From: Gammaproteobacteria bacterium
GTDB taxonomy: Bacteria > Pseudomonadota > Gammaproteobacteria > Steroidobacterales > Foliamicaceae
NCBI GenBank assembly: GCA_028821145.1
Contig: JAPPHC010000023.1
Span: 5,305-69,304, forward strand
Reading direction: 5' to 3'
DNA: 64,000 bases
Made by a program: the position numbers and the translations under genes. This document shows positions 7,410 to 30,800 of this stretch, in pieces. Below the pieces are notes generated by a model. The model saw only the letters and a list, made by a program, of their open reading frames with translations, searched no databases and was not told the DNA's origin. The first letter of the stretch is position 1, and every line of letters begins with the position of its first letter.

Positions 7410-10334
7410 ATGTACGAGATCTTCACGCTCGGCGGCGGCGCCTATCTGGTCGACCTCCTGAACGCCGTCGCGGCCATCACGTCCGGCGGCGCGTACGTGA
7501 TGCTCGCCCAGCTCGCGGGCGTCGCCGGTCTCGCCTGGGTGCTGTTCCGCACGGCGTTCGGCGGCTCGTGGAAGGACAACGGCAAATGGATCCTGATGTT
7601 CGTCGCCGTTTGGGGCGCGATGATCGTGCCGAAGGCCACGGTGCGGGTGGTGGACCGGCTCGACCCGGCGCTCGCGCCCGCCGTGGTCGCCAACGTGCCC
7701 ATTGGGCTGGCGCTGTTCGCCTCGGCGACCTCGGAGATCGGCGACGGGCTGACCCGGCTCACGGAGCAGGCGTTCGCGCTGCCCAACGATCTGTCCTACC
7801 GGCGCCACGGCATGATCTTCGGGGCGCGGCTGGCCGCGGCGGCGACCCGGCTCGAAGTCACCGATGCGGTGTTTGCCCGCAATCTCCGAAACTACGCGCG
7901 CCAGTGCGTGTTCTACGCGCTGCTGCTCGGCCACGTCTCCGCCGACGAACTGCGCGAATCCACGGACCTGTGGGCGCTGGTGACGTCCACGACCCGCTCG
8001 CCCACGGCGGGCGCCTCGCCCGCGCGCATGGTCGAGTTCGCCGAACGCAACGCCGGCGGCGGCGTGGACCGATCGGTCGCGACCTGCGCGGACGCGGCGG
8101 GCCGGCTCAATGCGCTTTGGGCGGCGGAGACGGCGCGCGCCGGCGCCGTGTTCGGACGAAGGCTCTTCCCCGGCGCGGCCACCGAGGCGCTGGCGCGCGC
8201 GGAGCTGATGGCGGCGCTGCCGGCCGCGCACGACTTCCTGATCGGCGCCTCGCGTTCCGCGGCGGAGATCATCCGCCAGCAGATGCTGCTCAACGCGGTG
8301 CACGAGGCCGGCGCGCAGTGGGCGTCGGAGGCCGGCAACGCCGCGGCGCTGGCGTCCTACACCGAGGCTCGCGCCGAGGCGCAGACGGTGGCCGCCTACC
8401 GGGCCATCGGCCGGCAGGCCGAGACCTGGGTGCCGATGCTGAAGATCGTGTTCGAGTGCCTGTACGTCGGCGCGTTCCCGATGGCGGTGCTGCTGATGCT
8501 CACGCCCGCGGGGGCGGCGATCTTCAAGTCCTACGTCACCGGACTCGTCTGGCTGCAATCGTGGGGGCCGCTGTACGCGATCCTGCACCGCATCGCCATG
8601 GGGGAGGCCGCCGAGCGCATGGGCGCTGTCGCGCTCATGCCCGGCGGGGATGTCGGCGTCTCGCTCGTCGCCCAGGCCGGCATCCGGGCGGTGGCCACCG
8701 ACGTGGCGGTGATGTCGGGGTACCTGTCGATGTCGGTGCCGTTCCTAGCCGCGGCGCTGGCGTTCGGGGTGTCCCGGATGACCTCGCTCGCCACCTCGGT
8801 GCTCCACGTCGGCCAGGAGGCCGCTGGCGCGGCTGCAAGAGAGAGTTCGACGGGCAACTTCTCGCTTGCCTCCACGCAGGTGGACACGCACCGCTACGCG
8901 ACACTGGAGGGCCGCCAGATCCGAACCTCGGCGCAGGTGGACGACCACCGCCACACCGGCTACGCGGCGGGCGGCGCGGCGTTCACGGTGACCGGCGACG
9001 GCACGGTCGTCGCCGACGCCGCGGCGGCCACCAGCCGCATCCCCGCGGCCGGGGTGCGGTTGTCGGAGTCGCTCGCGGCGAGCCACGAACAACGGGCATC
9101 GCAGGCCCGGAACCTGTCCCGGCAGTTCTCCGCGGAAGCGGGCACGGCGAGAAGCGCGGCGGTCACCGACGCCACGCGGCTCGGCGAGCGCTACGCCCGC
9201 GACGTCTCCACCGGCGAGGCGCACACCCTCGGCGTGACCGAAAGCGAGAGCGCGCAGGTCCAGGCGCTCCAGACCCACTACGAGCGGATGGCCGAGACCG
9301 CGGGTGTCACCAAGGACCAGATGGCCGCGATGGCGGTCGAGGCCCGCGTCGGCGGGGGCTGGGACTTCGTCGTGAAGGCCGGTGTCGACGGCTCCGCGCG
9401 CTGGCGCGGCCAGACGATGGACTCGGAGGCGTGGAACCGCTTGAAGGAATACGCCGAGAGCCACCAGGTGCTGGATCTCGCCTTGCGGGTCTCGGAAGCC
9501 TCGCGCCGCTATGCGACCCAGACCGGCGACAGCCGACACGCGGGGCTGGAGGAGAGCCTCGCCGCGAATCTCTCGGACATGCGGCGGTTCGAGGAACGCG
9601 CCTCGCTGGCGCAACAGGAATCGGAAAGCTGGGCGGAACAGGCATCCAGGGTGCGCTCGGAGGCGCAGGCCATCGACCGGGAACTCGGCCAGCCGTTCTT
9701 CGCGTGGCTGACGGAGCGCCCCGGCGCCGGGGGACGGCCGCTCGGGGCGGCGGGCGCGATCCGGCTGGCCTCGCCGCAGACGCCCGAGGACGCCGAGACG
9801 CTGAGGCAGTACGCCGCGGCGTTCGTCGCCGAGCGGTTCCCCGAACCGGCGGGGCCGGACCCGGCGTCGGTTCCCGGGAGGGAAGATTACAACGCGGCCC
9901 GAGATGCGCTGGATGAGGCACATGCCCACGGGACCGCGGCGGCCCACGCCGGGTGGACGGCGGGCGTGAGGGAACGGGCGGGCCAGGCCGGAACTCCGGC
10001 GCCGGGCGCGGTGGAGGCCGGCGCCGAACACGCCCGCGCGGCGGCCGAGGGGCAAATGGCCGCCGGCACCGCGGAACGCGACCTCCGGCGCGGCGCGACC
10101 GGGGACACTGTCCGGGACGGTCGGGCGGATGTGGAGGCCGAGATGGGCAAGCCGCTGGCGCGCCACGCCACCGAGAGCGTGCCGGGCGTCGGGGGCTGGC
10201 TCGGCGGCAAGCTGTTCGGCACGGCGGAGAACGCGGCGCCGGACGCCTCGCGGCGGGCAGACGCCTCGCAGCGGACGGACACCCCGGAACGTGCGGACAC
10301 GCCGCCACAGCCGGCCGCTCAGGAAAGATCGTGA
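7410..10334 (+). CDS. traG: Type-F mating-pair stabilisation / entry-exclusion partner TraG
   Basis: 974 aa. The polytopic N-terminal TraG_N-like domain starts MYEIFTLGGGAYLVDLLNAVAAIT. Long periplasmic C-terminal half with a low-complexity tail. Confidence 0.9.
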   Translation: MYEIFTLGGGAYLVDLLNAVAAITSGGAYVMLAQLAGVAGLAWVLFRTAFGGSWKDNGKWILMFVAVWGAMIVPKATVRVVDRLDPALAPAVVANVPIGLALFASATSEIGDGLTRLTEQAFALPNDLSYRRHGMIFGARLAAAATRLEVTDAVFARNLRNYARQCVFYALLLGHVSADELRESTDLWALVTSTTRSPTAGASPARMVEFAERNAGGGVDRSVATCADAAGRLNALWAAETARAGAVFGRRLFPGAATEALARAELMAALPAAHDFLIGASRSAAEIIRQQMLLNAVHEAGAQWASEAGNAAALASYTEARAEAQTVAAYRAIGRQAETWVPMLKIVFECLYVGAFPMAVLLMLTPAGAAIFKSYVTGLVWLQSWGPLYAILHRIAMGEAAERMGAVALMPGGDVGVSLVAQAGIRAVATDVAVMSGYLSMSVPFLAAALAFGVSRMTSLATSVLHVGQEAAGAAARESSTGNFSLASTQVDTHRYATLEGRQIRTSAQVDDHRHTGYAAGGAAFTVTGDGTVVADAAAATSRIPAAGVRLSESLAASHEQRASQARNLSRQFSAEAGTARSAAVTDATRLGERYARDVSTGEAHTLGVTESESAQVQALQTHYERMAETAGVTKDQMAAMAVEARVGGGWDFVVKAGVDGSARWRGQTMDSEAWNRLKEYAESHQVLDLALRVSEASRRYATQTGDSRHAGLEESLAANLSDMRRFEERASLAQQESESWAEQASRVRSEAQAIDRELGQPFFAWLTERPGAGGRPLGAAGAIRLASPQTPEDAETLRQYAAAFVAERFPEPAGPDPASVPGREDYNAARDALDEAHAHGTAAAHAGWTAGVRERAGQAGTPAPGAVEAGAEHARAAAEGQMAAGTAERDLRRGATGDTVRDGRADVEAEMGKPLARHATESVPGVGGWLGGKLFGTAENAAPDASRRADASQRTDTPERADTPPQPAAQERS

Positions 10335-10696
10335 CCGGCATCCGCAGAACGACGGGGATCGCGGTTCGCCAGGACATCCTCCCGATCGCGCATGAAGGCG
10401 TACGCGCCGACGCGCAGATCGAGGTCGGCCTCCTCCTCGCGGCCGGGTTCGTGGCGGTGGTCGCGGAACGCGGACCAGTCGCCCCCTCGCAGGCCCGCGC
10501 GGAGCGCCAGCGCGAAGCTCGCGAGAAACGTCCAGGCAACCGCGGCGAGCCACACGGGCGCAAGGAGGTCCTCGTCCAGCCCGAAAAAGGTGGCCGCGGT
10601 TGCGAGGCCGAGCGGCCCGAGCACGGCAAAACGTTCGCGGCGGGCGTTCCGGGGCGAACGGGCCCGGCCGGGCGGGAGGATCGAATTGCGGTTCAT
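10319..10696 (-). CDS. Small two-TM membrane protein (candidate entry-exclusion factor)
   Basis: RBS GGAGA about 9 nt upstream of ATG 10696. Two hydrophobic helices (FAVLGPLGLATAATFFGL and LLAPVWLAAVAWTFLASFALAL). Convergent with traG and overlaps it by 16 nt. Confidence 0.5.
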   Translation of the reverse strand: MNRNSILPPGRARSPRNARRERFAVLGPLGLATAATFFGLDEDLLAPVWLAAVAWTFLASFALALRAGLRGGDWSAFRDHRHEPGREEEADLDLRVGAYAFMRDREDVLANRDPRRSADAGHDLS

Positions 10697-10815
10697 GGAG
10701 CGAATCTCCGTACAACGCGGGATGGCCGCGCCGGACTCCGGGTCCCGGCGGCCTTCGCCCCGTCCCCCGCCCGGCTCCGCCTCGATGCGGCGCGGGCCGC
10801 GGGGGCTCGGCGCCC

Positions 10816-12945
10816 ATGAGAACCTTCGGCGGCAGCACGCTGCGCGGCGGGCAGACCGTGTTCCACGGCCTGCACATGTGGAGCCAGCTCCTGCGCGCGG
10901 CCTTGCTGCTCGCGGTGGTGGGGATCGTCGCCACGCCCGCCTGGCGGATCTGGGACCGTACGACCGGCTACGAGTGGTACGCGGCCATGATCGTGACCGT
11001 GGCCGAGGCCAAGCTCGGCGTCGGCTACGCGCGAACGTCCCGCCAGGAGGTGCGCCAGCCGGACGGAAGCACGGCGGTGCTCACTCTGCCGGAGATCGCG
11101 TCGTCGCCGCAGGCGCTGGCCATGCGCGAGAAGCTCAAGCGCGAGGTGTACGGGGGCGCGGCGCTTGGCGCCAAACTCTCCGCCGGGGCCATTGCCGGGC
11201 TGCTCGCGCTGTTTTGGGTCCGCGGAAACCGGCTCGGACGCAACCGCCACATTCGCGGCGCCGAACTCGCTACCGTGGGCCAACTGCGGCGGCGCGTACG
11301 GCCGCTCCCGCGCCGGGCCGCGGACCGGCTGTCGGGCCGGCGCCCGCCCTACCGCATCGCGGGGATGCCGTATCCGCGGCGCGCCGAGACGCAGCACACC
11401 ATCGTTTCCGGCACCACCGGGTCCGGAAAAACCGTACTGATCTCCGATCTGGTGGCGCAGATCCGCGAACGCGGCGAGCGCTGCGTCGTCTACGACAAGA
11501 TGGGCAGCTACACGCGCGCGTTCTACGACCCGGACAGAGACACGCTGCTCAACCCGCTCGACGCCCGCAGCCCGCGCTGGTCGCCGTTCCTCGAGGCGAG
11601 GAGCCCGAGAGACTTCGACACGATGGCCGCGGCGCTGATTCCGCAGCAGAAGGACACCGTCGATCCGTTCTGGGTTACGGCCGCCCGGCAACTGTTCGCC
11701 AACGGCGCGGGCGTGCTCCGCGAGCGCGGCGTCACCGAAAACCGGGAGCTCGTCGAGCACCTCCTCAAGACCGACCTGACGAAGCTCGCCGAGGCCATGG
11801 AGGGTACCGTCGCGCAGTCCATCGTCGATCCCGACAACCCCAAGACCGCGCTGAGCGTCCGCGCCATGCTCACCGCCAACATCGGCGCGCTGGAATACCT
11901 CCCCGACACAGGCGAGTCGTTCTCGATCCGCGAGTGGATCTCGAACGATGGCGCCTGCGGCGGGCAGGCCCGGGACGGCCGAGCGCGGGAGGCCCCGGCA
12001 GGGGGCGCGCCCGCCCGCCAGGGCGGCGGGTTCCTGTTCCTGACCTCCCGGGGCGACCAGCACGCCTCGTTGCGCGGGCTGATCTCGACCTGGCTGGAGA
12101 TCGCGGTCAACGCCATGCTCTCTCTGGAGCAGGACGACGAGCGCCGCATCTGGGTGGTGCTCGACGAGCTGCCGACGCTGCACCAGGTGCCGAGCCTGCA
12201 ACCGGGCCTGGCGGAGTCGCGCCAGTTCGGCGGCTGCTTCGTGCTCGGCATCCAGGTGATCTCGGCGCTGCGCGACCTGTACGGGCGCAACGGCGCGGAG
12301 ACCAAATCGGGGCTGTGCGGCACGCGCGTCGTGTTGGCCGCGCCGGATCGCGACACCGCGCAGTGGTCGGCCGAGAGCCTGGGGCGCGCCGAGGTCGAAG
12401 AGGTGACCGAGGGGTTCAGCTACGGCGCCAACACCATCCGCGACGGCGTCTCGCTGATGCCGAAGCGCGAGCTGCGACCGCTGGCGCTGGCCTCGGAGAT
12501 CATGCAGCTCGAAAGCCTCCACGGCTGGTTGCGGTTCCCCGGCCCGCTCCCGGTCGCCCGGATCAGGCTCAACTACGTCGCACGGCCGAAGGCTGCGGAG
12601 CGGTTCGTGCCGAGGCCGCATGGCGCCCCGGAGCAAGCGAATGCGCGGGAGGGATCGGCAATTGGAACCGCGACAGCGAAAAGGATGGAAGAGCCGAAAT
12701 CGCCGGCTCGGTCTATGCGATCCGCGGGCGCGGAGGATGAAGCGCCGGTTCCCCGTAGCGAATTGCTGCTGCTTCCGCCGATGGAGCCGGATCGTGGATC
12801 GAAGCCACCGCGCAAGGTACGAAAAAACGCAGTTCGCAAGGTGAGCAAATCTGGACCGGGCGGCGACGGCTCGAACCGGGACGCCAAATCTCGCGACGGC
12901 GACGAAGCGGGGGAAACGCCCGCCCAGGATCCGGACTGGCTGTAA
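10816..12945 (+). CDS. traD: Type IV coupling protein TraD
   Basis: Two N-terminal TM helices, Walker A GTTGSGKT, Walker B VVLDELPTL. Acidic-aromatic C-terminus QDPDWL whose stop overlaps the next ATG (TAATG). Confidence 0.9.
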   Translation: MRTFGGSTLRGGQTVFHGLHMWSQLLRAALLLAVVGIVATPAWRIWDRTTGYEWYAAMIVTVAEAKLGVGYARTSRQEVRQPDGSTAVLTLPEIASSPQALAMREKLKREVYGGAALGAKLSAGAIAGLLALFWVRGNRLGRNRHIRGAELATVGQLRRRVRPLPRRAADRLSGRRPPYRIAGMPYPRRAETQHTIVSGTTGSGKTVLISDLVAQIRERGERCVVYDKMGSYTRAFYDPDRDTLLNPLDARSPRWSPFLEARSPRDFDTMAAALIPQQKDTVDPFWVTAARQLFANGAGVLRERGVTENRELVEHLLKTDLTKLAEAMEGTVAQSIVDPDNPKTALSVRAMLTANIGALEYLPDTGESFSIREWISNDGACGGQARDGRAREAPAGGAPARQGGGFLFLTSRGDQHASLRGLISTWLEIAVNAMLSLEQDDERRIWVVLDELPTLHQVPSLQPGLAESRQFGGCFVLGIQVISALRDLYGRNGAETKSGLCGTRVVLAAPDRDTAQWSAESLGRAEVEEVTEGFSYGANTIRDGVSLMPKRELRPLALASEIMQLESLHGWLRFPGPLPVARIRLNYVARPKAAERFVPRPHGAPEQANAREGSAIGTATAKRMEEPKSPARSMRSAGAEDEAPVPRSELLLLPPMEPDRGSKPPRKVRKNAVRKVSKSGPGGDGSNRDAKSRDGDEAGETPAQDPDWL

Positions 12946-14844: not shown

Positions 14845-15669
14845 ATGATTGCCTTTCACGGCTTGCGGCGGACGATCCTTTTTGGCGTGGCGGGCGCGGT
14901 GTCGATGGCGATCCTTCTGCCCGGCCTCGCGCTGCTGCGCGATACCACCGGGCACGACTGGTACGCGGCGGGCAAGCTCGTCGTCACCGAGGCGATGATC
15001 GCGGTCGGTTTCGACCCGTCGGAATTCACGGAATACAGATCAGCGGATGGGTCGATCCGCACGGTCACTCGATTTCGCCTCGTCCATACCGTCGAAGCGT
15101 GGATGGCCCGCAGCCGCATCCTCTCCACGATCGCGGACAACGCGCTGCTTGGCGCCGGCGCCGGGTTCGGGGGCGTCGTACTCATGGCGATCCTGTCGAG
15201 CGTGACCCGGGGTGGGCGGCATGGACGGATGTCCAGAGCGTTGGCCGAACCGATGCACCGGGAGCGCCGAGGCTCGTCGCATCGAGGTTCCGGTACCGTC
15301 GAAGTGGTACCGCATACGGAAGGCGGTACCCGAATCGCACTGCCGGTCACGCCTGCCGAGTTTGACCGTCCGTCCGGCGCTGTCGGACAAGCCGGTCGAG
15401 CCCCTCTTCTAACTGCTACGGAACCGGGCCGGAACTCGACAAAGGACACTTCGAGGCGGCGGGCACCGGATGCGACATCCGCCGATCAGCAGACCGACGC
15501 GGAATCGCCCGGGCCTGCCAGTAGTCCGACATCGAACCCCAGCGATACGCGCAAACCGCCCGAAGAGTCTGCCGAGGCGTTCGAACCTGCGAGCGGTCGC
15601 GATTGCAATGGCTTTTCCGGTAGCGACAGAAAGCGCCCCGGTCCAGACGACGATTGGGACTGGTTCTGA
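14845..15669 (+). CDS. TraD-derived protein lacking the NTPase core (possible gene remnant)
   Basis: The N-terminus aligns with TraD (FHGL, TTGHDWYAA vs TTGYEWYAA, VTEA, ADGS vs PDGS, GAGAGFGGVVLMAIL vs GAKLSAGAIAGLLAL). No Walker A or B. C-terminus DDDWDWF overlaps the relaxase ATG (TGATG), as the TraD tail does at 12945. Confidence 0.6.
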   Translation: MIAFHGLRRTILFGVAGAVSMAILLPGLALLRDTTGHDWYAAGKLVVTEAMIAVGFDPSEFTEYRSADGSIRTVTRFRLVHTVEAWMARSRILSTIADNALLGAGAGFGGVVLMAILSSVTRGGRHGRMSRALAEPMHRERRGSSHRGSGTVEVVPHTEGGTRIALPVTPAEFDRPSGAVGQAGRAPLLTATEPGRNSTKDTSRRRAPDATSADQQTDAESPGPASSPTSNPSDTRKPPEESAEAFEPASGRDCNGFSGSDRKRPGPDDDWDWF

Positions 15670-18644
15670 TGGTCGCATCGATTGGTGCGGTAGCGAGCCC
15701 GGCACAGGGCGCCAGTTACTACGAACGGGACGGCTACTACGCCAAGGACGACCCCGAGCATCGCGCCGCGAGCGCTTGGGCAGGCCGCGGCGCGGCCGAA
15801 CTCGGCCTGGAAGGTACGGTCGATCCCGAGACCTTCAAGGCGGTGCTCGAAGGCGCCGTCCCCGACGGTTCCGGACGGCGGCTCGGCAAGCGCGGCAAGG
15901 GCGGGGAGATCCACCACCGGCCCGGGCGCGATCTGACGTTCAGTGCGCCCAAATCTGTCTCGCTCGCCGCGCTGATCGGCGGCGACTCCCGCATCGTCGA
16001 CGCCCACGACCGGGCGGTGGTCCGTGCGCTTGGCTGGTTCGAGAAAAACGCCGCCGAAACCCGGATGCAGGACAAAGCCACCGGAAGGATGGTCCGCGTG
16101 CGCGGCCAGAAGGCGGTGATTTCCACCTTCCGGCACGACACGTCCAGGAATCTCGATCCGGCGCTGCACACGCACTCGGTGATCGCCAACATGCTCAAGG
16201 GCGCCGACGGCAAGTGGCGGACGATGGCCAACGAGTCGCTCTACACCTCCAAGATGCTCCTGGGCGCCCTTTACCGGAGCGAGCTCGCGGGCGAACTCAA
16301 GACGCTCGGCTACTCCATCGAGAAGACCCACGCCGATGGGCGGTTCGAGATCGCAGGCGTGCCCCGCGAGACCGTCGAGGCGTTCTCCACGCGGCGGGCC
16401 GAGATCGAGGCTGCGATGGAAACGCGTGGCCTCGGAGAAACGGCGGCCAATCCGCATCTTGCCGGGCGGGCGGCGCTGATGACGCGCGCACACAAGCGCG
16501 ATGTCGACAAGGCGGCGCTGCGAGAGACCTGGGCGAAGCAGGCCGCCGACCTCGGCTTCGACGCCAAGGCGCTCATCGCCTCGGCGGTGGAGCGCAGTCG
16601 GAACGGCGCCCAGATCGCACACAACCATGAACAACAGGCGGGCAAGGAGGGATCACTTGGCACGGCGCGTCAGGAACACCTGTTTGAGCGGGCCGCACCG
16701 GCGGAACCCGCCCGCGAGGCGGTGGGGTGGGCGCTCGCCCATCTGTCGGAACGCGATGCCGTGTTCTCGTCGAACGATCTGTTGGCCGCAGCGCTTGCGT
16801 TCAATCCTGGCGCGGCCCCCATTGGGGAGATCGAGCAGGCCGTCGCGGGCCTCAAGCGTGAGGGCCGGCTCCACGATGCGCCGGCGCTCGAAGGCGGCGG
16901 CGGACTCACCACCGACACGGCGGTCGCGCAGGAACGCGAGACGATTTCCCTCATGCGCACCGGCGCGGCCCGGGGCAAGGCGCCGATGCGCGGCTGGATG
17001 GTCGACCGGCACCTGCGCAAGGGGCCGCTCACGGCCGGACAGAAGCAGGCGGTAAAACTGATCCTCTCGGAGAAGGATCGCACCGTCGGCGTGCAGGGCT
17101 ACGCCGGGACCGGCAAGACGCGGATGCTGAATCGCGCGAGGACTCTCGCCGAAAAGAAGGGCTGGCGCATGGTGGGGCTCGCGCCGTCGGCTTCGGCGGC
17201 GCAGACGCTGGCGGCGGAATCGGGCATCGAGTCGGAAACGCTGCAACGGTTCCTCGCGAGAAACGCGGGAGTCGCCCAAGGCCGGCTCACCCGCAAGGGT
17301 GCGAGAGCGCTGCGCGCCGCATTCGCCAAGACCGTGCTGGTCGTCGACGAGGGATCGCTCGCCTCCACCGTGCAGGCCCGCGACCTGCTCCGGATCGCGA
17401 GCGAAGTCCGCATCCCGAAGGTGGTGTTGGTCGGCGATGCCAAACAACTCGATGCCGTCGATGCCGGCAAACCGTTCTCGCAGTTGCAGCAGGCGGGCAT
17501 GAAGACCGCCGTCATGGACGAAATCATGCGTCAGAGAAACGTCGACCTGAAGGCCGCGGTGATGGCGAGTCTCAAAGGCGAGATCGGCAGGGCGTTCGAG
17601 AAACTGGGCGGCAATGTTGCCGAGGTCAACCCCGACAACATCGCCGGCGCGGTGGCCGCCCGCTGGCTGAAGCTATCGGCGGAGGAGCGCGACCGTACCG
17701 GTGTCATGGCCCCGAGCCATACCTTGCGGCAGGCGGTCAATGGGCACATCCGGGATCGGCTCGTTCGAGAAGGCCGCATCGCCGGTCCCGCCATGGAGAC
17801 GGAGCGGCTCGTCTCGAAGGGCTACACCAATGCGGAAAAGGCGCTGGCGGCGAACTACGCGGCCGGCGACATGGTCGCCTTTCACCGTCCCTACAAGCGG
17901 CTCGGTGTCGAGAAAGGCGCCGAACGCCGCGTTACGGGCGTGGATCACAGGACGAGAACCGTGCAACTGGAAGGCCCGGACGGTTCGGCGGTGGGCTGGA
18001 AACCGTCGCACATCGGAGGACGCCGGGGTGGAACGGAGGTCTACCGCGCGGAAGCGCTCGAGCTTCGCGCCGGTGACCGCATCCGCTGGACCCGCAACGA
18101 TGCGGGCCTGGGGATCGTGAACAGCGGCGTCGCTGAGGTGACGGCGGTGCGCAAAGGCCGGGTGTCCTTCCGTCTTGAGGACGGGCGCAGCCTCGATCTC
18201 CGCGAAGGAGACGCGCAGCTTCGCCATCTCGACCACGCCTGGGCCTCGACGGTGCACGCGTTCCAGGGTCGCACGGTGGATAACGTGATCGCGGCGATGG
18301 AAGCGAACCATCCGCGCCTGACGACGGCCAAGTCCTTCTACGTCGAGATCAGCCGCGCCCGGGACAGGGCGGAACTGGTGACCGACGATGCGGCGGCGCT
18401 CAAGGAACGGCTCGAAGCGGTGACGGGAGAGCGCATCTCGGCCCTTGAGGGCATCGGCGAGGCCCAGCAGCCGGAGCGCGGCAAGGACTCGAAGGCGTCA
18501 CTCGACCGCGAACCGACACACCGTGAGACTGGGGCGTCGTCCTCGCCGGACAAGATCACCGAGCACGATGTCTCCACCGCCAGGCAGGCGGAACCGGAAC
18601 CACCGACCCGGGGCAAGAACCTTGACATGGAGCTGGGGCTGTAG
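15669..18644 (+). CDS. traI: MOBF (TrwC/TraI-type) relaxase-helicase
   Basis: N-terminal YYERDGYY tyrosines and histidine triad FRHDTSRNLDPALHTHSVIAN. Helicase Walker A GVQGYAGTGKT, LVVDEGSL, and C-terminal STVHAFQGRTVD. Confidence 0.9.
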   Translation: MVASIGAVASPAQGASYYERDGYYAKDDPEHRAASAWAGRGAAELGLEGTVDPETFKAVLEGAVPDGSGRRLGKRGKGGEIHHRPGRDLTFSAPKSVSLAALIGGDSRIVDAHDRAVVRALGWFEKNAAETRMQDKATGRMVRVRGQKAVISTFRHDTSRNLDPALHTHSVIANMLKGADGKWRTMANESLYTSKMLLGALYRSELAGELKTLGYSIEKTHADGRFEIAGVPRETVEAFSTRRAEIEAAMETRGLGETAANPHLAGRAALMTRAHKRDVDKAALRETWAKQAADLGFDAKALIASAVERSRNGAQIAHNHEQQAGKEGSLGTARQEHLFERAAPAEPAREAVGWALAHLSERDAVFSSNDLLAAALAFNPGAAPIGEIEQAVAGLKREGRLHDAPALEGGGGLTTDTAVAQERETISLMRTGAARGKAPMRGWMVDRHLRKGPLTAGQKQAVKLILSEKDRTVGVQGYAGTGKTRMLNRARTLAEKKGWRMVGLAPSASAAQTLAAESGIESETLQRFLARNAGVAQGRLTRKGARALRAAFAKTVLVVDEGSLASTVQARDLLRIASEVRIPKVVLVGDAKQLDAVDAGKPFSQLQQAGMKTAVMDEIMRQRNVDLKAAVMASLKGEIGRAFEKLGGNVAEVNPDNIAGAVAARWLKLSAEERDRTGVMAPSHTLRQAVNGHIRDRLVREGRIAGPAMETERLVSKGYTNAEKALAANYAAGDMVAFHRPYKRLGVEKGAERRVTGVDHRTRTVQLEGPDGSAVGWKPSHIGGRRGGTEVYRAEALELRAGDRIRWTRNDAGLGIVNSGVAEVTAVRKGRVSFRLEDGRSLDLREGDAQLRHLDHAWASTVHAFQGRTVDNVIAAMEANHPRLTTAKSFYVEISRARDRAELVTDDAAALKERLEAVTGERISALEGIGEAQQPERGKDSKASLDREPTHRETGASSSPDKITEHDVSTARQAEPEPPTRGKNLDMELGL

Positions 18645-18762
18645 AGCGCGTCCACGGCGGACAAATGAATGGCGGCTTGCGCCAGAGCCGGACGCATCCC
18701 TGCCGGGAGGTACGCCGGGCTGAGGGACAGAAGATCGAACATACGATGACGGGAGAACTGCG

Positions 18763-19116
18763 ATGAACCGGAACCGATCCAGCAATCACCAGACGACAGA
18801 CGCGGAGGCGAAGCGGCGGCCTCACTCGATTCGGTTTCTCGACCCGGAATGGGAGCGCATCGAAGTCTTCGCCGATCAGCGCGGCCTCACCGCTCCCGAG
18901 TTCGTCCGGTTCGCTGCGCTTGTTGCGATAGAGAACGGGAGCGAACCGGTCGCCAAGCTGATCCCGCTGATCAAGAGGACGTTCCGCGGGACCCACATAT
19001 TGGCGTCGAGATTGCGCGTCGAGATGCTCGACGCGGGCGAGCAGGAAGAGCTCGATGCGATGATCGCCGCAGCCCGCGGGCTTCAGAACGAGTTGATCGG
19101 CTCCCAATCGGACTGA
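18763..19116 (+). CDS. Small relaxase-adjacent protein, possibly ribbon-helix-helix DNA-binding
   Basis: RBS GGGAGA. The segment RPHSIRFLDPEWERIEVFADQRGLTAPEFVRFAAL has a strand-helix-helix pattern like relaxosome accessory or RHH proteins. Tentative. Confidence 0.5.
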   Translation: MNRNRSSNHQTTDAEAKRRPHSIRFLDPEWERIEVFADQRGLTAPEFVRFAALVAIENGSEPVAKLIPLIKRTFRGTHILASRLRVEMLDAGEQEELDAMIAAARGLQNELIGSQSD

Positions 19117-19137
19117 GCGGCCAATTGCGCTCGCTGT

Positions 19138-19179
19138 CAAATTTGCAATTTGCTACAGTGCCGCCCGAATTTGAAATTC
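19138..19179. promoter_or_regulatory. AT-rich palindrome/repeat cluster upstream of the 19349 gene
   Basis: Contains CAAATTTG (palindrome, 19138-19145), AATTTG repeated at 19140, 19147 and 19168, and GAATTT-G-AAATTC (6-1-6 inverted repeat, 19167-19179). Confidence 0.35.
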
Positions 19180-19348
19180 ACTGGTATGGGCGTGAGCAGG
19201 TGCTGCGAACAGTTCGACTACAATAACCGTTTGGAGCCGTGTCCGCTGCGCTGCCGGAAACGGAAGTTGTAGCACCGATAGCAGTAATCACTCACTATCC
19301 GGCGCTGCTTGACCTCACACCTGAGCCCAAGCTCGAAACGATATTCAA

Positions 19349-21112
19349 ATGGCGGATAACCCGCTGACCGTACCAGCGAAGGCGGGGCGCACCATCGTCG
19401 AGTCCGGCGCGTTACTCGCTTGCCCGCTTCTCGGCACCGACCGCTTCGTGAAATTCTGTTCCGATCGCGGCCTCGACATCGACCGCGAACGCCTCATCCG
19501 ACTTGAACGTCTCGGGTTGTTTGCCCCGGTGTTCCGGGTGCGGACGCCCAAAAGCTCGACAGAACCCTTCCGTATTCCGCCGACCAAAGGAAACAACTGG
19601 TTCAGCAAGGGATGGGCTCGCGACACCACAGGCGTCCCTTCGAGACACGCGGTCCCGCCGCACAACGACCAGACTCGCGAAGGATACTACTCGATCTTCC
19701 AGATACATCAACTGGATTCCGTGCTGTCCGCGTTTACGCTTCAGCTCCGCCTGGACTCTTTTGTTGACCTCGACGGGGAAGGCCCATTCCAATGGCAGGA
19801 GGCGGGCACTCGCTGGCTGAATCACGCACGAGACCTCGCAGGCAGCCTGCGCGACCATCAGTACCGCCCAGCCGTGGCGCTATTGTGTCAGTACATCTCG
19901 AACCGCTACTACCCGCACACGCAGAGCGACATGCGAATCCAGCAAGTTCGCAAGAGCCTCTCATCCGATCAATGGATATTCGTCAACGCTCAGGATTGGG
20001 ACTGGGAGGAAGAAGCGCGGCATTGGAATCCCAGGGAGACAGAGAAGATATTCGGGCTGACGCAGGAGAACCTCGGTCGAGCCTACCGGGGCCTCTCGGT
20101 CGCCCAAGCGCATTGCGACCCGATCGAGCCTTGGTACCAACTTACCCAGTTCATTGCGATGAACGAACGTGAAAAATTGAAAGGAGCGGCGCTGCGGGCG
20201 GAAACTCTGCGCGCCGGAGCCTTCATGCTTGGGTTGCTTTACAAGGACCTTTATGGGGAAGAACTCCCTCACCCCAATGAAGTGACCCGAACGATAATCC
20301 GACACATACCGGAAACGGCGGTGCGCGATGACGTTCGTCGCCACCTTGAATTCGTTGCCAACCGTTTCCACGTCAACCCGCAACCTCGACTTTCGCTGAT
20401 CGTTGAAGGACAGACCGAGGAGATAGCCGTCACCCAGATATTCGAACGTTTCTTCGGTGCGCATCCCGGGACATTCGGCATCGAAGTCGTCGTGCTCGGC
20501 GGAGTGAATGTCGCGACCGGCGGCAAGAAGGAAGACCGCTTCCGCGCGATCATGCGCCTGATTGACTACCTGCATCACCATCAGACCTTCACGTATCTGT
20601 TGCTCGACAACGAGAACTATGCGAGCCGGCTCAAGAAAGCTGCTAAGGAAATGAAGTCGATTCACACGGATCATCGATACGTTACCCGACCCGACTACAT
20701 TCGCATCTGGAAGACCTCGTTCGAATTCGACAACTTCTCCTGTACCGAAATCGCGGCGGCTCTGGGGGAAGCGGCGGAAGATCGTGTCCAGTTCACGTCA
20801 AGACAAGTTGCGGCCGCGAAGCAAGAAAAGCACCCCGGGGCTGCGCTCGGACAACTCTTCCGGTGCAAGACTGGCCACGATCTTCCCAAGATTTCGCTGT
20901 GCGAATCTCTCGTTCGTTGCATGTTCTCTCCAACGAGCCGTCGCAAAATCGAGAATCGACCCATCGTCCGCGCCTTGAACCGGGTTGCTAGTCTCGCTGC
21001 TCGCAACCATTTGCCCGTCACCCAAGGGACAAAAGATGCGAATCAGGAGTCAACATTCCTGGGTCTGAAACGCACGCCACCTGCGAGGACAGGACGAAAG
21101 CCAACGTCATGA
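19349..21112 (+). CDS. 587-aa hypothetical protein with Toprim-like C-terminal module (candidate nuclease/defence gene)
   Basis: Long ORF with balanced composition in a visibly lower-G+C segment. aa 346-470 read RLSLIVEGQTEEIAV...IEVVVLGGVNV...TYLLLDNENY...WKTSFEFDNF, i.e. strand-EGxxE then hydrophobic strand-DxE, as in Toprim/OLD/DUF4435/DUF4276-type domains. No P-loop seen. Confidence 0.7.
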   Translation: MADNPLTVPAKAGRTIVESGALLACPLLGTDRFVKFCSDRGLDIDRERLIRLERLGLFAPVFRVRTPKSSTEPFRIPPTKGNNWFSKGWARDTTGVPSRHAVPPHNDQTREGYYSIFQIHQLDSVLSAFTLQLRLDSFVDLDGEGPFQWQEAGTRWLNHARDLAGSLRDHQYRPAVALLCQYISNRYYPHTQSDMRIQQVRKSLSSDQWIFVNAQDWDWEEEARHWNPRETEKIFGLTQENLGRAYRGLSVAQAHCDPIEPWYQLTQFIAMNEREKLKGAALRAETLRAGAFMLGLLYKDLYGEELPHPNEVTRTIIRHIPETAVRDDVRRHLEFVANRFHVNPQPRLSLIVEGQTEEIAVTQIFERFFGAHPGTFGIEVVVLGGVNVATGGKKEDRFRAIMRLIDYLHHHQTFTYLLLDNENYASRLKKAAKEMKSIHTDHRYVTRPDYIRIWKTSFEFDNFSCTEIAAALGEAAEDRVQFTSRQVAAAKQEKHPGAALGQLFRCKTGHDLPKISLCESLVRCMFSPTSRRKIENRPIVRALNRVASLAARNHLPVTQGTKDANQESTFLGLKRTPPARTGRKPTS

Positions 21113-21234
21113 GCCAAGCCCATGCCTACCTGTACGATGTCTAAGTCGTTCACCAGCAGCTCCACGATTCTAGCCGTCGCCACCATGACGGAGGCCATGA
21201 GCAGTCCGCGAATTCGAGGCGACGAATAGGACTG

Positions 21235-21497
21235 CTATCTCCAGAGCGTTGGTCGGAGCGTGAGAGTCCGACCTGTAACGAGCGCGAACAGCAGGAAGAT
21301 CGTCTTCGTACTGTGGCTTTCGTTCGCGGTGCTGGAGGGCCACTGACGCGACAAATCTGGGTTCGGATTCCCGATGCTCCAGAGCATCGCGAGCAGTCGA
21401 ATTGACTGCTCGTAGGAAGGCTCCTGATTCCCCAGAGAACCGAAGCCCAAGAAACGTTTGCCATTTCAACACGATACTCGCGGTTCTCCAGAGAACC
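21235..21497. repeat. Array of related 16-bp palindromic sites sharing a CYCCAGAG core, interleaved with hairpins
   Basis: Palindromic sites: GATGCT-CCAG-AGCATC (21373-21388), GATTCC-CCAG-AGAACC (21426-21441), GGTTCT-CCAG-AGAACC (21482-21497) and a degenerate copy at 21235-21250. Hairpins: GGTCGGA-N9-TCCGACC (21251-21273) and CGAGCAGTC-GAATT-GACTGCTCG (21390-21412). Confidence 0.6.
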
Positions 21498-21885
21498 AAC
21501 TCGATCCGGCAAGTGCGAGGCGCTCCATGTCGCCGAAAACGCATGGGAATGCAGGACAGGCGCGCGCCTGGCACACCCCGCAGAGGAACTGCGCTCAGGT
21601 GTGAAAACCGAGCCGCCTCCGGCGTCGAGGAGAGCACCGGGAGGCGGCATTCAGTAAGGGAAGAACGGCGCCGGCGAACGCGGCGGGCGTGAGCCGCCGC
21701 GGCGCGTGAGCGGACGGCGGTGCGGACGGAGCTGCGGGCAGGCGTGCGCAGCACGCTGCCGGACGCGGCGGCGGAATCGGCTGCACGCGGGCGGACATCG
21801 GTTGCAGCAGCGATGCGGACGGACGTGCGGATGCCGATGCGCAGCGAAGCCGCCGTCGGCGACGCGCGGAGCGCGGACAGCGCCG

Positions 21886-21931
21886 ACCAAAAAAGAAGCG
21901 GGCCGCGCCGCCGGAGAGCGACGCGACCCGC
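21886..21931 (-). terminator. Rho-independent terminator ending the minus-strand gene block
   Basis: On the minus strand GCGGGUCGCG-N14-CGCGGCCCGC (10 bp, one G-U) is followed by UUCUUUUUU. It starts 14 nt after the stop at 21946. Confidence 0.6.
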
Positions 21932-21945
21932 GGGGCCGGTGCGGG

Positions 21946-22875
21946 CTACGCCGCGCGGCAGCGCTGCACCGGGATGCCGAGCTTGACGGCCTTGTCGACG
22001 AGGTTGTCGGTGATGCCTGAGCCGGGGAAGGCGATGACGCCCTTGGGCAGCAGGTTGAGCAGGTCGTCGTTGCGCCGGAACGGTGCGGCCCGTCCGTGGC
22101 GGTCCCAGTCGGGCTTGCACACCACCTGGTGCACGCCGTGGCGTTCGGCCCACTGTGCGGCGAAGCGTTCCACGCCGGGGCCGCCGCCGTGCACGAGCAC
22201 CATGTCGCTGTACTTCGCGCGGGCGGTGTCGAGGCGCCGGAAGATGGCGTCCACGTCCGTGACGTTCTTGCCGCCGGCCACCGCGATCAGGGTGCCGTCG
22301 GGCAGGTGCGCCTGGGTCTCGCGATCCTTGCGGGCGCGCAGGAAGTCGCGGGCGTCGATGGCCGCGGAGGTGAGTTTCCGCGTCTGGCTCGTGTGGCTGC
22401 CGTAGCGCGGGCGCCAAGTGTCGCCGGTGGCTTCGCGGTAGGCGTCGGCGGCGGTGTCGCGCATCTTCTCGAACGCGTCGCGCCGCTTGCCGAGGTTCTG
22501 CGCCCGGTCGGTCGTGAGTTCGAGTTCGCGGGCGTTGATCTCGGTGCCGTCCTGGGCGCGTTGCAGGTCGCGGAGCTTCGGGGCCAGCCGGTCGACGCCG
22601 CGGTCGAGCCTGCGGACCTGGGCGTCGAGCATGTTGACGAAGCCCCAGAGCATGGACTCGCGCTCGTCGGCGAGTTGGGTGCCGTCGGGCGCCACGTTGC
22701 CAGCGAGGATGCTGAACGCTTCGCTGACCGCGGCGAGCGCGTCGTCCCGGTCCCAGACGTCCCTGGGGTCGAACTCGTCGCGCCCGGGCGTTGCGCCGTA
22801 GAGTGCCGCGTTCTCGCAGATGACTGCCGTGGGCGATTGCGCCTGTTGGGCTTGCAGTGTGTCGTAATCGAACAT
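21946..22875 (-). CDS. DUF2493-like (SLOG-type) protein with coiled-coil N-terminal half
   Basis: RBS AGGAGA upstream of ATG 22875 (MFDYDTLQ). The C-terminus VLVHGGGPGVERFAAQWAERHGVHQVVCKPDWDRHGRAAPFRRNDDLL...GVIAFPGSGITDNL is the pattern I recall for DUF2493. Confidence 0.75.
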   Translation of the reverse strand: MFDYDTLQAQQAQSPTAVICENAALYGATPGRDEFDPRDVWDRDDALAAVSEAFSILAGNVAPDGTQLADERESMLWGFVNMLDAQVRRLDRGVDRLAPKLRDLQRAQDGTEINARELELTTDRAQNLGKRRDAFEKMRDTAADAYREATGDTWRPRYGSHTSQTRKLTSAAIDARDFLRARKDRETQAHLPDGTLIAVAGGKNVTDVDAIFRRLDTARAKYSDMVLVHGGGPGVERFAAQWAERHGVHQVVCKPDWDRHGRAAPFRRNDDLLNLLPKGVIAFPGSGITDNLVDKAVKLGIPVQRCRAA

Positions 22876-23274
22876 GAGAGTGTCTCCTGTAACAAGATGA
22901 GAGATGAGCCAGATGGCCCGGAGCATCGGAAGAGCGTCTCCCGACGTAGGTTTATTGGTTCACGCGCGCGCAGTGCCGTCACCGCCTTGGCGGCCGCAGC
23001 GAAGCGTAGGACCCGCGCTTGCGCGGGTTGACGGTGCGAGCACGTGTGAAACAATGGGCCTTCGTCGGGAGGAGCTTTTGTTTCCATGACCGCCGTGTTC
23101 CCTGGCAAGCGGAGTGCGCAGCGAGCCTGCGAGCGGAGGCGCGAGGGATTGCAGCGGAAATCGGAGCTTGCGGAGATTGGAGCGTAAAGCCCGGTCGCGA
23201 AGCGACGCGCACAAAGTTCTGTCCTGCATCCGCGCCGCTGCCGATCCGAACCGCAATCCCGTAGTCCACGCCGC

Positions 23275-27878: not shown

Positions 27879-30800
27879 TCACGCGGGCGGCCAGCGTTCG
27901 AGCACCCGGCCGAGCGTCCCGGCGTCCGGCGCGAACACGCGGGCGCGGTAGGAAACGATCTCCACCGTGCAGCCGAGGCGCTTGAGCGCCGGCAGATCGG
28001 TGTCGGCGGGGCCCTCGATCTCGACGCGGTCGGCGCCCATGAGGCGGCGCCGTGCGACGCGCCAGCCGTTGGCCAGCGGGACGGCGGCCCCGCGCGAAAG
28101 CACCGCCTCGAACGCCTCCTCCCCGGTCATGTCGAACCCGCCGCCCAGGCCGAACGCCTGCCGCACGGCGCGGACCTGTTCGGCATCGAGCACGCGCCCG
28201 ATCAACGCCGCGCCCTCGTCGGTGGTGAGCCGGCGCACGCGCATGTTCTCCGCGGGCAGCCGGTCCCAGACCGGCAAGAGAAGCCCCGTGGCGAGCCAGA
28301 ACCGGGATTCCCGGTGCGACGGCAGCGCGACCACCTCCGCGTCCCAGATGCGCCGCCAGTCGGCCTCCGGTGCCCGGCGCCAATGCGAGGCGCGCAGTTC
28401 GTCGCGCGCCATCGACTGGCGGGCGTCGGGCCGCACGAGACGCAGGCGCTCCTGCACCCCGCCGTCGTCGAACAGCCGCGACGGCGCGGACAGCACCACC
28501 GCGGCGCGCTGAGAGCGGGTGTTGACCGCGAGTCTCGGGTTGCCGTCGGGTCCGGGATCGCGGGTGGCGAGCGCGAGCGCCGCGTCCGCCGTTGTCGGCT
28601 GAAGCCGGTCGCGGCGCAGGATCTCGACCAGCTCCGTTGCCGCCCCGGTCCCGGGGTGATCGTACAGTGTTTCCCGTCCGGCCACGGCCAGCGAGTCCGC
28701 CTGCACCGTCTCGACGCCGAGCTCGTAGGTGCCGGCTTCGACGGCCTGCTCGATGTTGGCGGCGATGCGCGTTTCAAGCTCGGCGAACAGCTCGTTCTGC
28801 TCGTCGATGGGCAGCGCCAGCAGCCGGTTCAGGAACTTCGGCATGGGCGGCAGGTTTTCCTTCAGGGAACCCTCGTGGGAGAGTTTGAGGCCGGTCGCGT
28901 CCTCGAACCGCTCCGGCGTCCAGCCGCCGATGCGCCCGAGCCACAGCGAGCCGTAGAACTGGCGCAGCGCCGCCTTGGCGTAGACGCTTTCCAGGTTGTC
29001 GCTCTCGCGGAACAGCGATTGCCCGCCGCCCATGGCGGTCTGGCTGTCTCTCTGCCCGCGGGTGATGGCGCCGAGGCTGTCGAGCCGCCGGGCGATGGTG
29101 GCGATGAACCGGCGCTCGCCCTTCACGTCGGTGGCCACGGGCCGGAACAGCGGAGAGAAAGCCTGGTGCGTGCGGTGCGTCCTGCCGAGCCCCTGGATCG
29201 CCTGGTCGGCCCGCCATCCGGGTTCCAGCAGGTAATGCACGCGCCGCTCGGTGTTGGCGCACGAGAGGTCGGCGTGGTAGCTGCGCCCGGTGCCGCCGGC
29301 CATGGAGAACACCAGGATGCGCTTGGTCCCGTCCATGAACGCGGCGGCCTCGGACAGGTTCGCCGACGCCGGCCGGTTGCGCAGCGCCAGGCGCTCGCCG
29401 CGCGCGTCGGCGATACGCAATACCCGCCGCGAGCGCCCGGTCACCTCCGCCACGGCGTCGTGCCCGAAGTGCTGCACGATCTGGTCGAGCGCGGCAGGTA
29501 CCGGCGGCAGCGCCGCGAGTTTCTCGATCAGGGCGTCGCGCCGGTCCACTGCCTCGCCGCAGAGCACGGGATTGCCGTCGGCGTCGAACACCGGCCGCGA
29601 CATCAGGTTGCCCTCGGCGTCGGTGAACGGTTCCTGGAGCTGCACCGGGAACGCGTGGGCGAGGAACTCGATCACGGTCTCCCGGGGCGTGAGATCGACG
29701 TTGAGATCGTCCCATTCCGAGGCCGGGATCTCGGCGAGCCTTCTCTCCATGAGCGCCTCGCCTGTGGACACGAGCTGCACCACAGCGGAGCGCCCCTGCT
29801 CAAGATCGGCCTCGATGGCGCGGATCAGCGACGGGCACTTCATGGAAGTGAGCAGGTGGCCGAAGAACCGTTGCTTGGCGCCCTCGAACGCCGACATCGC
29901 CGCGGATTTCGCGTTGCGGTTCAGCGTCGATTCGCCGTCGGCGATGCCGGTGGCGTTCAGCGCCTCGGTGAGATTGGCGTGGATGACCTTGAACGCCCCG
30001 GCGTAGGCGTCGTAGATGCGCCGCTGGGCGTCGCTCAGCGGGTGTTCGAGGATGTCCACTTCCACGCCGTCGTAGGACAGCGCGCGGGCCTGGTAGAGGC
30101 CGAGCGCCTTGAGATCGCGCGCGACCACTTCGAGTGCGGCGACGCCGCCCGCCTCCATGGCGGAGACGAACTCCGCGCGGGTCTCGAAAGGGGTCTCGCC
30201 GGAAGCCCAGAGTCCCAGCCGCCCGGCGTAAGCCAGCCCCGGCACGGTCGTGGCGCCGGTGGCGGAGACATAGACGACGCGCGCGTCCGGCAGCGCGTGC
30301 TGGAGCCGTAGACCGGCACGGCCCTGCTGCGAGGGCGCGATGTCGCCGCGATTGCCCTTGCCGCCCGCGGCGTTGGCCATGGCGTGGGCCTCGTCGAACA
30401 CCACGACCCCGTCGAAGGCGTGGCGATCGTCCTCGTCGAGGCTGCCCGCGAGCCATCCGACGATCTGGTCGAGCCGCGAGGCGACCTGCCGTCGCGCCAG
30501 CGACCCCTGTCGGGCCGGCGAGCGCAGGGTCGCGTAGGTCGCGAACAGGATGCCTTCGGTGAGCGGGATCTCCGCGCCCTGGCGGAACTTGCCGAGGGGG
30601 ATCACGTCGGTTTCCCGGCCCCCGAGCGCAAACCAGTCGCGGCGCGCGTCCTCCAGCAGCTTGTCGGACTGCGACAGCCAGAGCGCCCGGCGCTGTCCCT
30701 TGAGCCAGCGGTCGAGCACAAGGGCGGCGACCTGCCGGCCCTTGCCCGCGCCGGTGCCGTCGCCGAGCATCCAGCCGCGCCGGAATCGCACCGGTTCGGA

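Follow-up and report, generated by a model that had tools for sequence, protein, structure and literature searches.

What is the function of a single long, AT-rich gene that lies between the relaxase gene and the establishment genes of a bacterial conjugative element? The gene occupies positions 19349..21112 (+) of the window, the 64,000-nucleotide stretch of contig JAPPHC010000023.1 of a Foliamicaceae gammaproteobacterium (assembly GCA_028821145.1) that was analyzed. It is complete in the list of open reading frames (ORFs), with an ATG start, 587 codons and a stop, and a protein identical to its product is on record on two metagenomic contigs. A preliminary description of the locus had proposed a stand-alone defense or exclusion nuclease, with a Toprim-like C-terminal module and a novel sensor domain. 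The last 240 residues form a nuclease module of the OLD type, a Toprim domain plus a helical domain, and the protein as a whole is a known effector module under a new, unrecognized control or targeting domain. The favored reading, at a probability of about 0.6, is that of a self-contained defense or conflict nuclease, often an accessory layer to restriction systems. From neighborhood and domain kinship we infer the defense role, and with it nuclease activity, a regulatory role of the N-terminal region, a substrate and a trigger. The general theme of a Toprim defense nuclease in islands is already established; the architecture of an OLD-type Toprim joined to a 340-residue non-ATPase domain was not found described in the literature searched, which covers few subscription journals.

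The OLD-type nuclease module

Pfam recognizes a single family in the protein, PF20469 (OLD-like TOPRIM), which covers aa 350-388 and scores 23.8 bits (gathering cut-off 23.2). In a set of 77 relatives that extends to 26% identity, 69 match this family individually, with a best E-value of 1.2e-8. An AlphaFold2 model from a diverse 77-sequence alignment (mean predicted local distance difference test score, pLDDT, 94.2; predicted template modeling score, pTM, 0.88) replaced an earlier one from 32 close homologs whose N-terminal part was poor (pLDDT 56). Foldseek comparison of this model with the PDB places C-terminal regions of class 2 OLD proteins from Xanthomonas campestris and Burkholderia pseudomallei (6njw, 6nk8, 6njv, 6njx) in the top five positions, and these alone at probability 1.00. 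The template modeling (TM) scores for the target are 0.52-0.62 over ~230 aligned columns, which cover both domains of the ~200-residue OLD C-terminal regions (6nk8/6njv). A sequence profile search of the PDB returns only the 6nk8/6njv proteins, LIVEGQTEE of the target being aligned with FVEGDAER. The Toprim-like module suggested earlier is thus present and of the OLD kind, and the DUF4435 (AriB-like) and DUF4276 kinds suggested alongside it find no match: models of RloB (PF13707), DUF4276 (PF14103) and the DUF4435 of AriB give nothing against the protein at E<=1, and DUF4276 is matched weakly (~1e-3) by 4 of the 77 relatives. Matches to PADLOC models are confined to the Toprim parts of GajA, Old and HEC-01B, over ~40 residues at E-values of 5e-4 to 0.07, with no full-length match to any system protein model of PADLOC-DB v2.0.0, and an NCBIfam search of the protein returned nothing. 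Wadjet JetD/MksG (DUF2220-type Toprim, arm domain, JetABC) has no Pfam match in the protein or its 77 relatives. JetD structures lie outside the top PDB fold matches, within which the OLD C-terminal regions fall, and SMC-like genes are missing from the recurrent neighbors of the family.

The Toprim core comprises aa 346-455 (20384..20713, +), as delimited by the PF20469 match, the PDB profile alignment, Foldseek and conservation, and is followed by an OLD-like helical domain at aa 456-566 (20714..21046, +), delimited by the helix order of the model, conservation and Foldseek. Alignment and composition set apart a short basic C-terminal tail, aa 567-587 (21047..21109, +), with 5 K/R in 21 residues; its length and sequence vary across the family, and pLDDT is lower at this end of the model. 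All four peptide motifs that had been read from the DNA are found in the translation, namely RLSLIVEGQTEEIAV at aa 347-361 (nt 20387-20431), IEVVVLGGVNV at aa 378-388, TYLLLDNENY at aa 415-424 and FEFDNF at aa 458-463. In the model, E353 (nt 20405-20407) stands at the end of Toprim strand 1, E357 (20417-20419) in helix 1 and D420-N-E422 (20606-20614) at the end of strand 3. The first helix of the helical domain bears S457-x-E459 (E459 at nt 20723-20725), and its fifth helix opens at K514 (20888-20890).

These positions can be laid against the known active site of the B. pseudomallei OLD protein (Bp OLD), in which metal A is held by E400 and D455/D457 and metal B by E404, T506 and E508, the last two in helix H1 of the five-helix domain, and the catalytic lysine K562 lies in helix H5 (PMC6755086). 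By sequence alignment for the first motif, and by topology and spacing for the rest, E400 corresponds to E353 (conserved in 77/77 relatives), E404 to E357 (76/77), D455 to D420 (77/77), D457 to E422 (75/77), T506 to S457 (S, N, C or T among the 77), E508 to E459 (77/77) and K562 to K514 (77/77); G354 and N553 are likewise found in 77/77. The four-residue spacing of E353 and E357 is that of E400 and E404, the 55 residues from E459 to K514 compare with 54 from E508 to K562, and the helix order of the model fits the five-helix bundle plus C-terminal helix of Bp OLD. The strand-EGxxE and strand-DxE layout noticed earlier is therefore present, and E459 and K514 of the helical domain contribute to the predicted active site as well. 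Since the conserved catalytic set is co-linear with that of Bp OLD, the module is very probably an active two-metal nuclease of the OLD type, as judged from sequence and model. Catalysis would most likely follow the two-metal scheme of the class 2 OLD enzymes, with E353 and D420 (together with E422) holding metal A, E357, S457 and E459 holding metal B, and K514 stabilizing the transition state or leaving group. A catalytically dead Toprim serving as a scaffold or binding domain might be suspected from the change of DxD to DxE and from the borderline Pfam match of the protein itself. This is very improbable, as all metal-binding positions and the catalytic lysine are 97-100% conserved among relatives down to 26% identity, and Glu is able to replace Asp as a metal or water ligand.

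The N-terminal region in place of an ATPase

The class 2 OLD and Gabija GajA proteins (6NK8, 6NJV) share with the protein the Toprim core, five-helix bundle and C-terminal helix, the co-linear order of a Glu, a second Glu at +4, D-x-D/E, first-helix Glu and fifth-helix Lys, and an overall length of ~580 residues. Unlike them, it is without ABC ATPase, Walker A motif, dimerization insert and GajB helicase partner, and its N-terminal 340 residues are unrelated to theirs in sequence and detectable fold; the second acidic motif is D-x-E rather than the D-x-D of OLD, and identity to OLD C-terminal regions is only 14-17%. Searches with Pfam, NCBIfam and PADLOC found no ABC or AAA ATPase family in the protein or its relatives outside the Toprim segment. 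The lack of a P-loop reported earlier is borne out by the absence of a Walker A motif from the protein; the motif occurs in three of the 77 relatives, where its positions are not homologous. For the full-length OLD structure 6p74 and for GajA, alignment to the model is confined to the Toprim part, over ~230-270 columns at TM 0.13-0.17. A degenerate ABC ATPase in the N-terminal half was considered and ruled out, this half having no Walker A motif, being mostly helical and showing no full-length OLD or GajA fold match. Since the ATPase was sought and not found, the protein resembles an OLD nuclease at its catalytic end and stands outside the OLD family as that family is defined (ABC ATPase plus Toprim).

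Nor is there a fixed partner gene, in agreement with the preliminary description: neighbor clustering over 46 loci of the family (numbered with the prefix L below) finds no gene common to all. UvrD-like, reverse transcriptase (RT) and AAA_15/21 families are missing from the recurrent neighbor families of these loci, at which none of the partners of the OLD classes, GajB helicase (class 2), retron RT with noncoding RNA (ncRNA; class 3) and AriA (class 4), is a conserved neighbor. Rlo genes lie inside type I restriction loci. AriB (DUF4435), RloB and DUF4276 proteins are, like the protein described here, OLD-like Toprims without a fused ATPase in defense islands; however, they are of ~200-350 aa and need a separate OLD-type ABC ATPase (AriA, RloA), whereas the present protein has 587 aa and no ATPase neighbor. 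AriB is a latent tRNase that is freed on sensing an anti-restriction protein (PMC11464382, PMC12409363). In retron Eco2 (Ec67) a Toprim effector is fused to a non-ATPase regulator and caged until a phage cue, whereupon it cuts tRNAs (PMC12916289). The RT-Toprim of Eco2 is thus alike in joining a Toprim effector and a non-ATPase regulatory moiety in one polypeptide, but its partner is a reverse transcriptase with multicopy single-stranded DNA (msDNA), and no RT family or ncRNA was detected for the protein; Rfam, with its retron and other RNA families, gave zero matches over window positions 18600-22100. In the PrrC-EcoprrI paradigm a latent nuclease backs up a neutralized restriction enzyme. 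PrrC and RloC resemble the present gene in setting, as latent nucleases in or next to a restriction system (for a survey of back-up effectors, see PMC12839542), but consist of an ABC ATPase and a HEPN-like nuclease of unrelated fold.

The N-terminal region, aa 1-342 (19349..20374, +), is mostly helical and family-specific, and is defined by its conservation and by a model pLDDT of ~95. It is conserved as strongly as the nuclease part, with L49, E53, P60, R63, Y114, S115, F117, Q118, Q181, R186, Y187, D194, R196, W219, W226, D257, P258 and W262 invariant or nearly so. The earlier observation of ~340 residues without recognizable motifs holds across every library searched: no match was found in Pfam, NCBIfam, PADLOC, PHROGs or PDB sequence profiles, nor among PDB and BFVD folds. 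A profile of the N-terminal part by itself retrieves 370 proteins, compared with 373 for the full-length query, and these are the same two-domain family, the top 120 all being ~570-630 aa or fragments. By these profile searches the region is therefore an obligate partner of the OLD-type Toprim nuclease, and the same result rules out a promiscuous sensor module shuffled among proteins. A possible winged helix-turn-helix at aa 28-76 (19430..19576, +) is seen in the secondary structure of the model, with helices at 30-39 and 46-54, a hairpin at 62-65/74-76 and the motif RERLIRLERLGLFAPVFR. Its R-x-L-x-R-L-E-x-x-G-L-F-x-P pattern and helix-helix-hairpin order recall MerR-type winged helices. However, hhalign of aa 28-76 against CueR and MerR sequences gave 0.6% probability, with the CueR motif in register and that of MerR not, and Pfam MerR and HTH_17 have no match in the protein or the 77 relatives; a MerR-type winged helix is a possible lead only.

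Such a region could serve in a direct, restriction-like endonuclease of Type IV character, comparable to Mrr or McrBC beside hsd, in which the N-terminal part reads a modified base, sequence or structure and the Toprim cuts the DNA. This is a variant of the defense reading rather than an alternative to it. It would accord with invariant aromatic and polar residues such as Y114, F117, Y187, W219, W226, W262, R186 and R196, as in a base-binding pocket, with the possible winged helix, and with the proximity of the gene to systems of types I, ISP and IIG, as in an immigration control region. The isolated C-terminal regions of OLD proteins do cleave DNA in vitro (PMC6755086). Yet no known reader fold (SRA, EVE, YTH and similar) appeared in any search, the winged-helix assignment is without statistical support, and several OLD-type Toprim effectors cut tRNA and not DNA (PMC12409363, PMC12445682, PMC12916289), so that direct restriction is rather unlikely, if still a serious candidate.

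Genomic settings and spread of the family

When up to two genes on each side are taken as nearest neighbors of the 46 loci (n=113), the most frequent families are N6_Mtase (8), ResIII (6), Eco57I and HipA_C (5 each), MmeI_Mtase and DEAD (4 each), TrwC, HSDR_N and Methylase_S (3 each), and PIN and Fic (2 each); PADLOC assigns type IIG, type I and DrmMI models among them. Directly upstream and co-directional with the gene are a type ISP enzyme (L014), an Mrr-helicase-methylase fusion (L034), MmeI-type IIG enzymes (L020, L023), Eco57I-type IIG enzymes (L025, L039, L046), an HsdM-S fusion (L035), HsdR (L043) and a DUF1156 (DrmMI-like) methylase (L012). Type I genes flank it in L007, L024, L026 and L031, and in L024 hsdR lies on the other side of it from the upstream genes; in L009 an Eco57I-type enzyme is encoded convergently with it, and an Eco29kI system lies 5 kb off in L004. 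With refined starts, the gaps to upstream restriction genes are -4 bp (L039), 8, 20, 46, 53, 90, 119 and 125 bp, which is consistent with co-transcription. When copies of one island are counted once, the gene is associated with restriction systems about a dozen times independently; these systems are of at least six types, and close (55-70% identity) as well as distant (~30%) clades are involved. The homologs are thus found in variable islands rich in restriction-modification, toxin-antitoxin and conjugation genes, and not in the conserved housekeeping contexts that would have told against the earlier proposal. The description of the gene as stand-alone holds in that no partner is conserved, but needs qualification in that at least a dozen loci have it co-directional and no more than ~125 bp behind a restriction enzyme or HipA; it may be an add-on to these neighboring systems.

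In five loci (L011, L013, L017, L022, L033; ~8100-11750 in each) the gene ends a string of a HipB-like helix-turn-helix gene and a HipA gene, with gaps of 19-47 bp, adjoining the ICE (integrative and conjugative element) membrane protein DUF4400. These loci belong to Gammaproteobacteria and Nitrospirota and are 75-86% identical in nucleotide sequence upstream, and therefore represent one island family. HipB, HipA and the present gene may form a three-gene module that couples the HipA kinase to a nuclease. A conserved island protein of ~1300 aa in which only an N-terminal HTH_37 is recognizable is encoded within a few kb of the gene in three loci (L009 106-4176; L016 13077-16844; L032 10-3834).

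The window region is itself a conjugative element, with a TraG_N protein gene at 7410-10334, a TrwC relaxase gene at 15654-18644 and a YAcAr/SLOG protein gene at 21946-22926; the identical contig L001 also has SSB, a DUF7146/Toprim_3 protein and a Gp49/HTH_37 pair. Directly upstream of the gene is one for a 117-aa ribbon-helix-helix (RHH), NikA-like protein (18763..19116, +), assigned from weak Pfam NikA-like and RHH_4 matches. The two related ICEs L003 and L010 carry proteins identical to those of the window at 76% for TrwC, 64-67% for YAcAr, 61.5% for the present protein and 37% for RHH. In all three elements the RHH gene and the present gene lie between the TrwC and YAcAr genes (window 18763-21112; L003 9002-11725; L010 ~8840-11767), and the orientation of this two-gene cassette in L003 and L010 is opposite to that in the window, which suggests that it is a separate module, either invertible or inserted independently. 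Apart from a 3' remnant in L007, the RHH gene is found with the present gene only in these three loci, all of TrwC-type ICEs, and was on this ground rejected as a family-wide partner or antitoxin. L007 belongs to the cyanobacterium Aphanocapsa feldmannii and lies beside a type I system; there, ~9700-10000 resembles window 19050-19348 at ~70% identity and retains the RHH 3' end and the leader, so that the L007 copy stems from the same cassette, and the likeness indicates that the cassette was transferred between phyla, out of an ICE-like context. From the shared placement in L003 and L010 together with this remnant it follows that the gene is a long-standing cargo of this ICE lineage. The variable insertion spot envisaged earlier is therefore not borne out for the related ICEs, which have the gene at the same place, and applies to the contexts of the homologs, which are variable and island-like.

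A function in maintenance or competition of the mobile element, as an addiction toxin, an exclusion nuclease against rivals or an anti-defense establishment factor, might be read from the position between the relaxase and establishment genes (SSB, YAcAr, Toprim_3 protein) in the three related ICEs, and from the five HipB-HipA strings next to DUF4400. Split or truncated copies of the gene (L008 9953-11752; L033 10001-10867; L037 10001-11108; L048 10001-10801) would likewise suit a toxic gene, and are as expected for a costly or toxic accessory gene in general. However, there is no conserved antitoxin-like neighbor or overlapping small ORF, a dozen or more of the loci are restriction loci on chromosomes, with no conjugation genes, and the family is missing from all 72,556 plasmids searched; this function is accordingly improbable. 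Carriage by phages or plasmids was ruled out in the same way, no homolog being found in INPHARED, PLSDB or IMG/VR.

The family comprises 373 close full-length relatives in 90% clusters, all "hypothetical", and 908 representatives at E<=1e-3 in 50% clusters, essentially all of the same two-part architecture. In ~185,000 species (one genome per species) it is found at 43 loci, all from metagenome-assembled genomes. The bacterial hosts are Alpha- and Gammaproteobacteria, Cyanobacteria, Nitrospirota, Binatia, Verrucomicrobiota, Acidobacteriota, Bacteroidota, Nitrospinota, Planctomycetota (Brocadia) and Methylomirabilota, and the archaeal ones Methanophagales, Methanoperedens and Halobacteria. The family thus spans more than 10 bacterial and archaeal phyla, with many bacterial copies 55-71% identical across phyla, and has spread by horizontal transfer. 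Hosts are enriched in symbionts of sponges and marine invertebrates and in uncultured lineages, for example Aphanocapsa feldmannii, Defluviicoccus RHO bins, Porisulfidus, Multivorans, Rariloculaceae, the Escarpia endosymbiont, Thiodiazotropha and Kentrum. A housekeeping nucleic acid enzyme of the RNase M5, primase or RecR type, or a Cran1-like cell-cycle factor, present in islands by chance, is hardly compatible with this distribution. Toprim domains do serve many core functions, strong purifying selection acts over the whole protein, and the OLD-family Cran1 is not a defense protein (PMC12796447). But the mere 43 loci, patchy across phyla at 55-70% identity, with consistently foreign G+C, unconserved neighborhoods and pseudogenized copies, and a fold that matches OLD nucleases specifically and not primase, RecR or M5, leave a housekeeping role very little probability.

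The low G+C content of the gene was correctly noted: the ORF has 57.8% against 69.4% for the whole window, ~12 points under its surroundings, and its G+C at third codon positions is 0.67 compared with 0.83 in the neighboring TrwC relaxase gene. It had been taken as a mark of acquisition by the ICE in a variable spot. However, at 37 of 39 loci the G+C content of the gene falls below that of its flanks, by a mean of 7.9 points, so the anomaly is a family trait of a frequently transferred gene and no sign of recent insertion in this ICE. The 232-nt leader between the RHH gene and the present gene (19117..19348, +) begins at the first base past the stop of the 117-aa gene, and the range 19117-21112 to which attention was first drawn is this intergenic leader plus the ORF. 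The bases preceding the ATG, cgaaacgatattcaaATG, hold no purine-rich Shine-Dalgarno run, and AT-rich direct repeats (AATTTGCAATT / AATTTGAAATT) and palindromes, one of them at 19140-19151, lie at 19120-19190, ~160-230 nt 5' of the start; both features agree with the preliminary description, which had placed the palindrome cluster about 170 bp upstream. No sigma-70 consensus was found around the 19120-19190 repeats, and the repeats are only partly kept in one other locus (L007, ~70% over 113 nt). The leader is probably a local promoter or operator region and not a family-wide element. The palindromes were rejected as a family-level operator because they are not conserved, and a 5' leader, ncRNA or promoter traveling with the gene was ruled out, upstream likeness being found only between same-island loci and Rfam giving no match. 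A 51-aa antisense ORF at the 3' end of the gene (L001, L002) has no conserved counterpart and is taken as spurious.

Some further features of the element may be recorded. The ~830 bp between the stop of the gene and the YAcAr gene (21113-21945; 66% G+C) have no gene called on the identical contig L001, no homolog in the other loci and no Rfam RNA family. In L001 the Gp49 (HigB-like toxin) and HTH_37 (HigA-like) pair lies at 12065-12758 in the establishment region of the ICE, as a second conflict module. A Strawberry-notch-type helicase of 1509 aa is encoded at 27879-32408 (-), with AAA_34 and Helicase_C_4 domains and an N-terminus of ~450 aa without family match; when carried by conjugative elements, proteins of this type often occur as fusions with methylases or anti-restriction functions. 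Outside the region studied, 44737-46848 (+) encodes a protein of 703 aa whose GPP34 (Golgi phosphoprotein 3-like) domain is uncommon in bacteria.

Proposed action and significance

In the proposed action of the defense nuclease, the N-terminal domain would take over the job of the ATPase, so that the nuclease stays inactive or away from its target before a cue is received, or would choose its substrate. The gene behaves as a mobile conflict gene, moving between phyla and landing on conjugative elements or behind restriction-modification enzymes or HipBA, and on this ICE is carried as cargo between the relaxase and establishment genes. It would probably provide accessory or back-up defense against phages or incoming DNA, cutting either the DNA of the invader or tRNA or other RNA of host or phage, the latter leading to abortive infection. 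Both kinds of substrate have precedent among OLD-type Toprim effectors of defense, DNA for GajA and the Vibrio class 1 OLD nickase (reviewed in PMC10568477; PMC12392090) and tRNA for AriB (PMC12409363) and P2 Old (PMC12445682). Back-up effectors of the OLD/Toprim kind adjoin BREX and restriction-modification-like systems, always with an OLD ABC ATPase (PMC12839542).

A more specific proposal, which can be put forward only tentatively, is that of a single-polypeptide "guard", in which an N-terminal sensor of new fold would detect the inactivation of a restriction enzyme, or the anti-restriction factors or foreign DNA that cause it, whereupon the ATP-independent Toprim would cut tRNA or DNA and abort the infection. 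If so, the protein would be the equivalent in one polypeptide of PARIS (AriA plus AriB) or of PrrC-EcoprrI, able to dock behind any restriction type or to ride on ICEs.

Several observations weigh against the interpretation as a defense nuclease. Cran1, an archaeal member of the OLD family, is not a defense protein (PMC12796447). The Foldseek E-values are modest (1e-3), the Pfam match does not reach beyond the first 40 Toprim residues, and the second acidic motif is D-x-E, not D-x-D. Defense is deduced from neighborhood and domain kinship only. Several of the restriction- or ICE-linked loci are same-island copies, making about a dozen independent links and not 25; ~20 of the 46 loci are not shown to lie beside defense or mobility genes, and a few neighbors are metabolic (hydantoinase, dehydrogenase, ABC transporter). 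The family is also missing from 50,697 INPHARED phage genomes, the 72,556 PLSDB plasmids and IMG/VR contigs, and from all cultured organisms sampled.

To our knowledge, the characterized OLD-type Toprim defense nucleases (P2 Old, Gabija, PARIS, retron Eco8) are all controlled by ABC ATPases, the sole exception being retron Eco2 with its RT and msDNA. The same catalytic module under a conserved 340-residue domain without relatives would therefore mean a new route of sensing or gating, and the N-terminal domain could be a new sensor fold. The placement of the gene behind six kinds of restriction enzyme leads to the testable idea that restriction systems are commonly backed by portable one-gene effectors, and the family illustrates a diversity of immune genes that is confined to the genomes of uncultured symbionts and environmental organisms.

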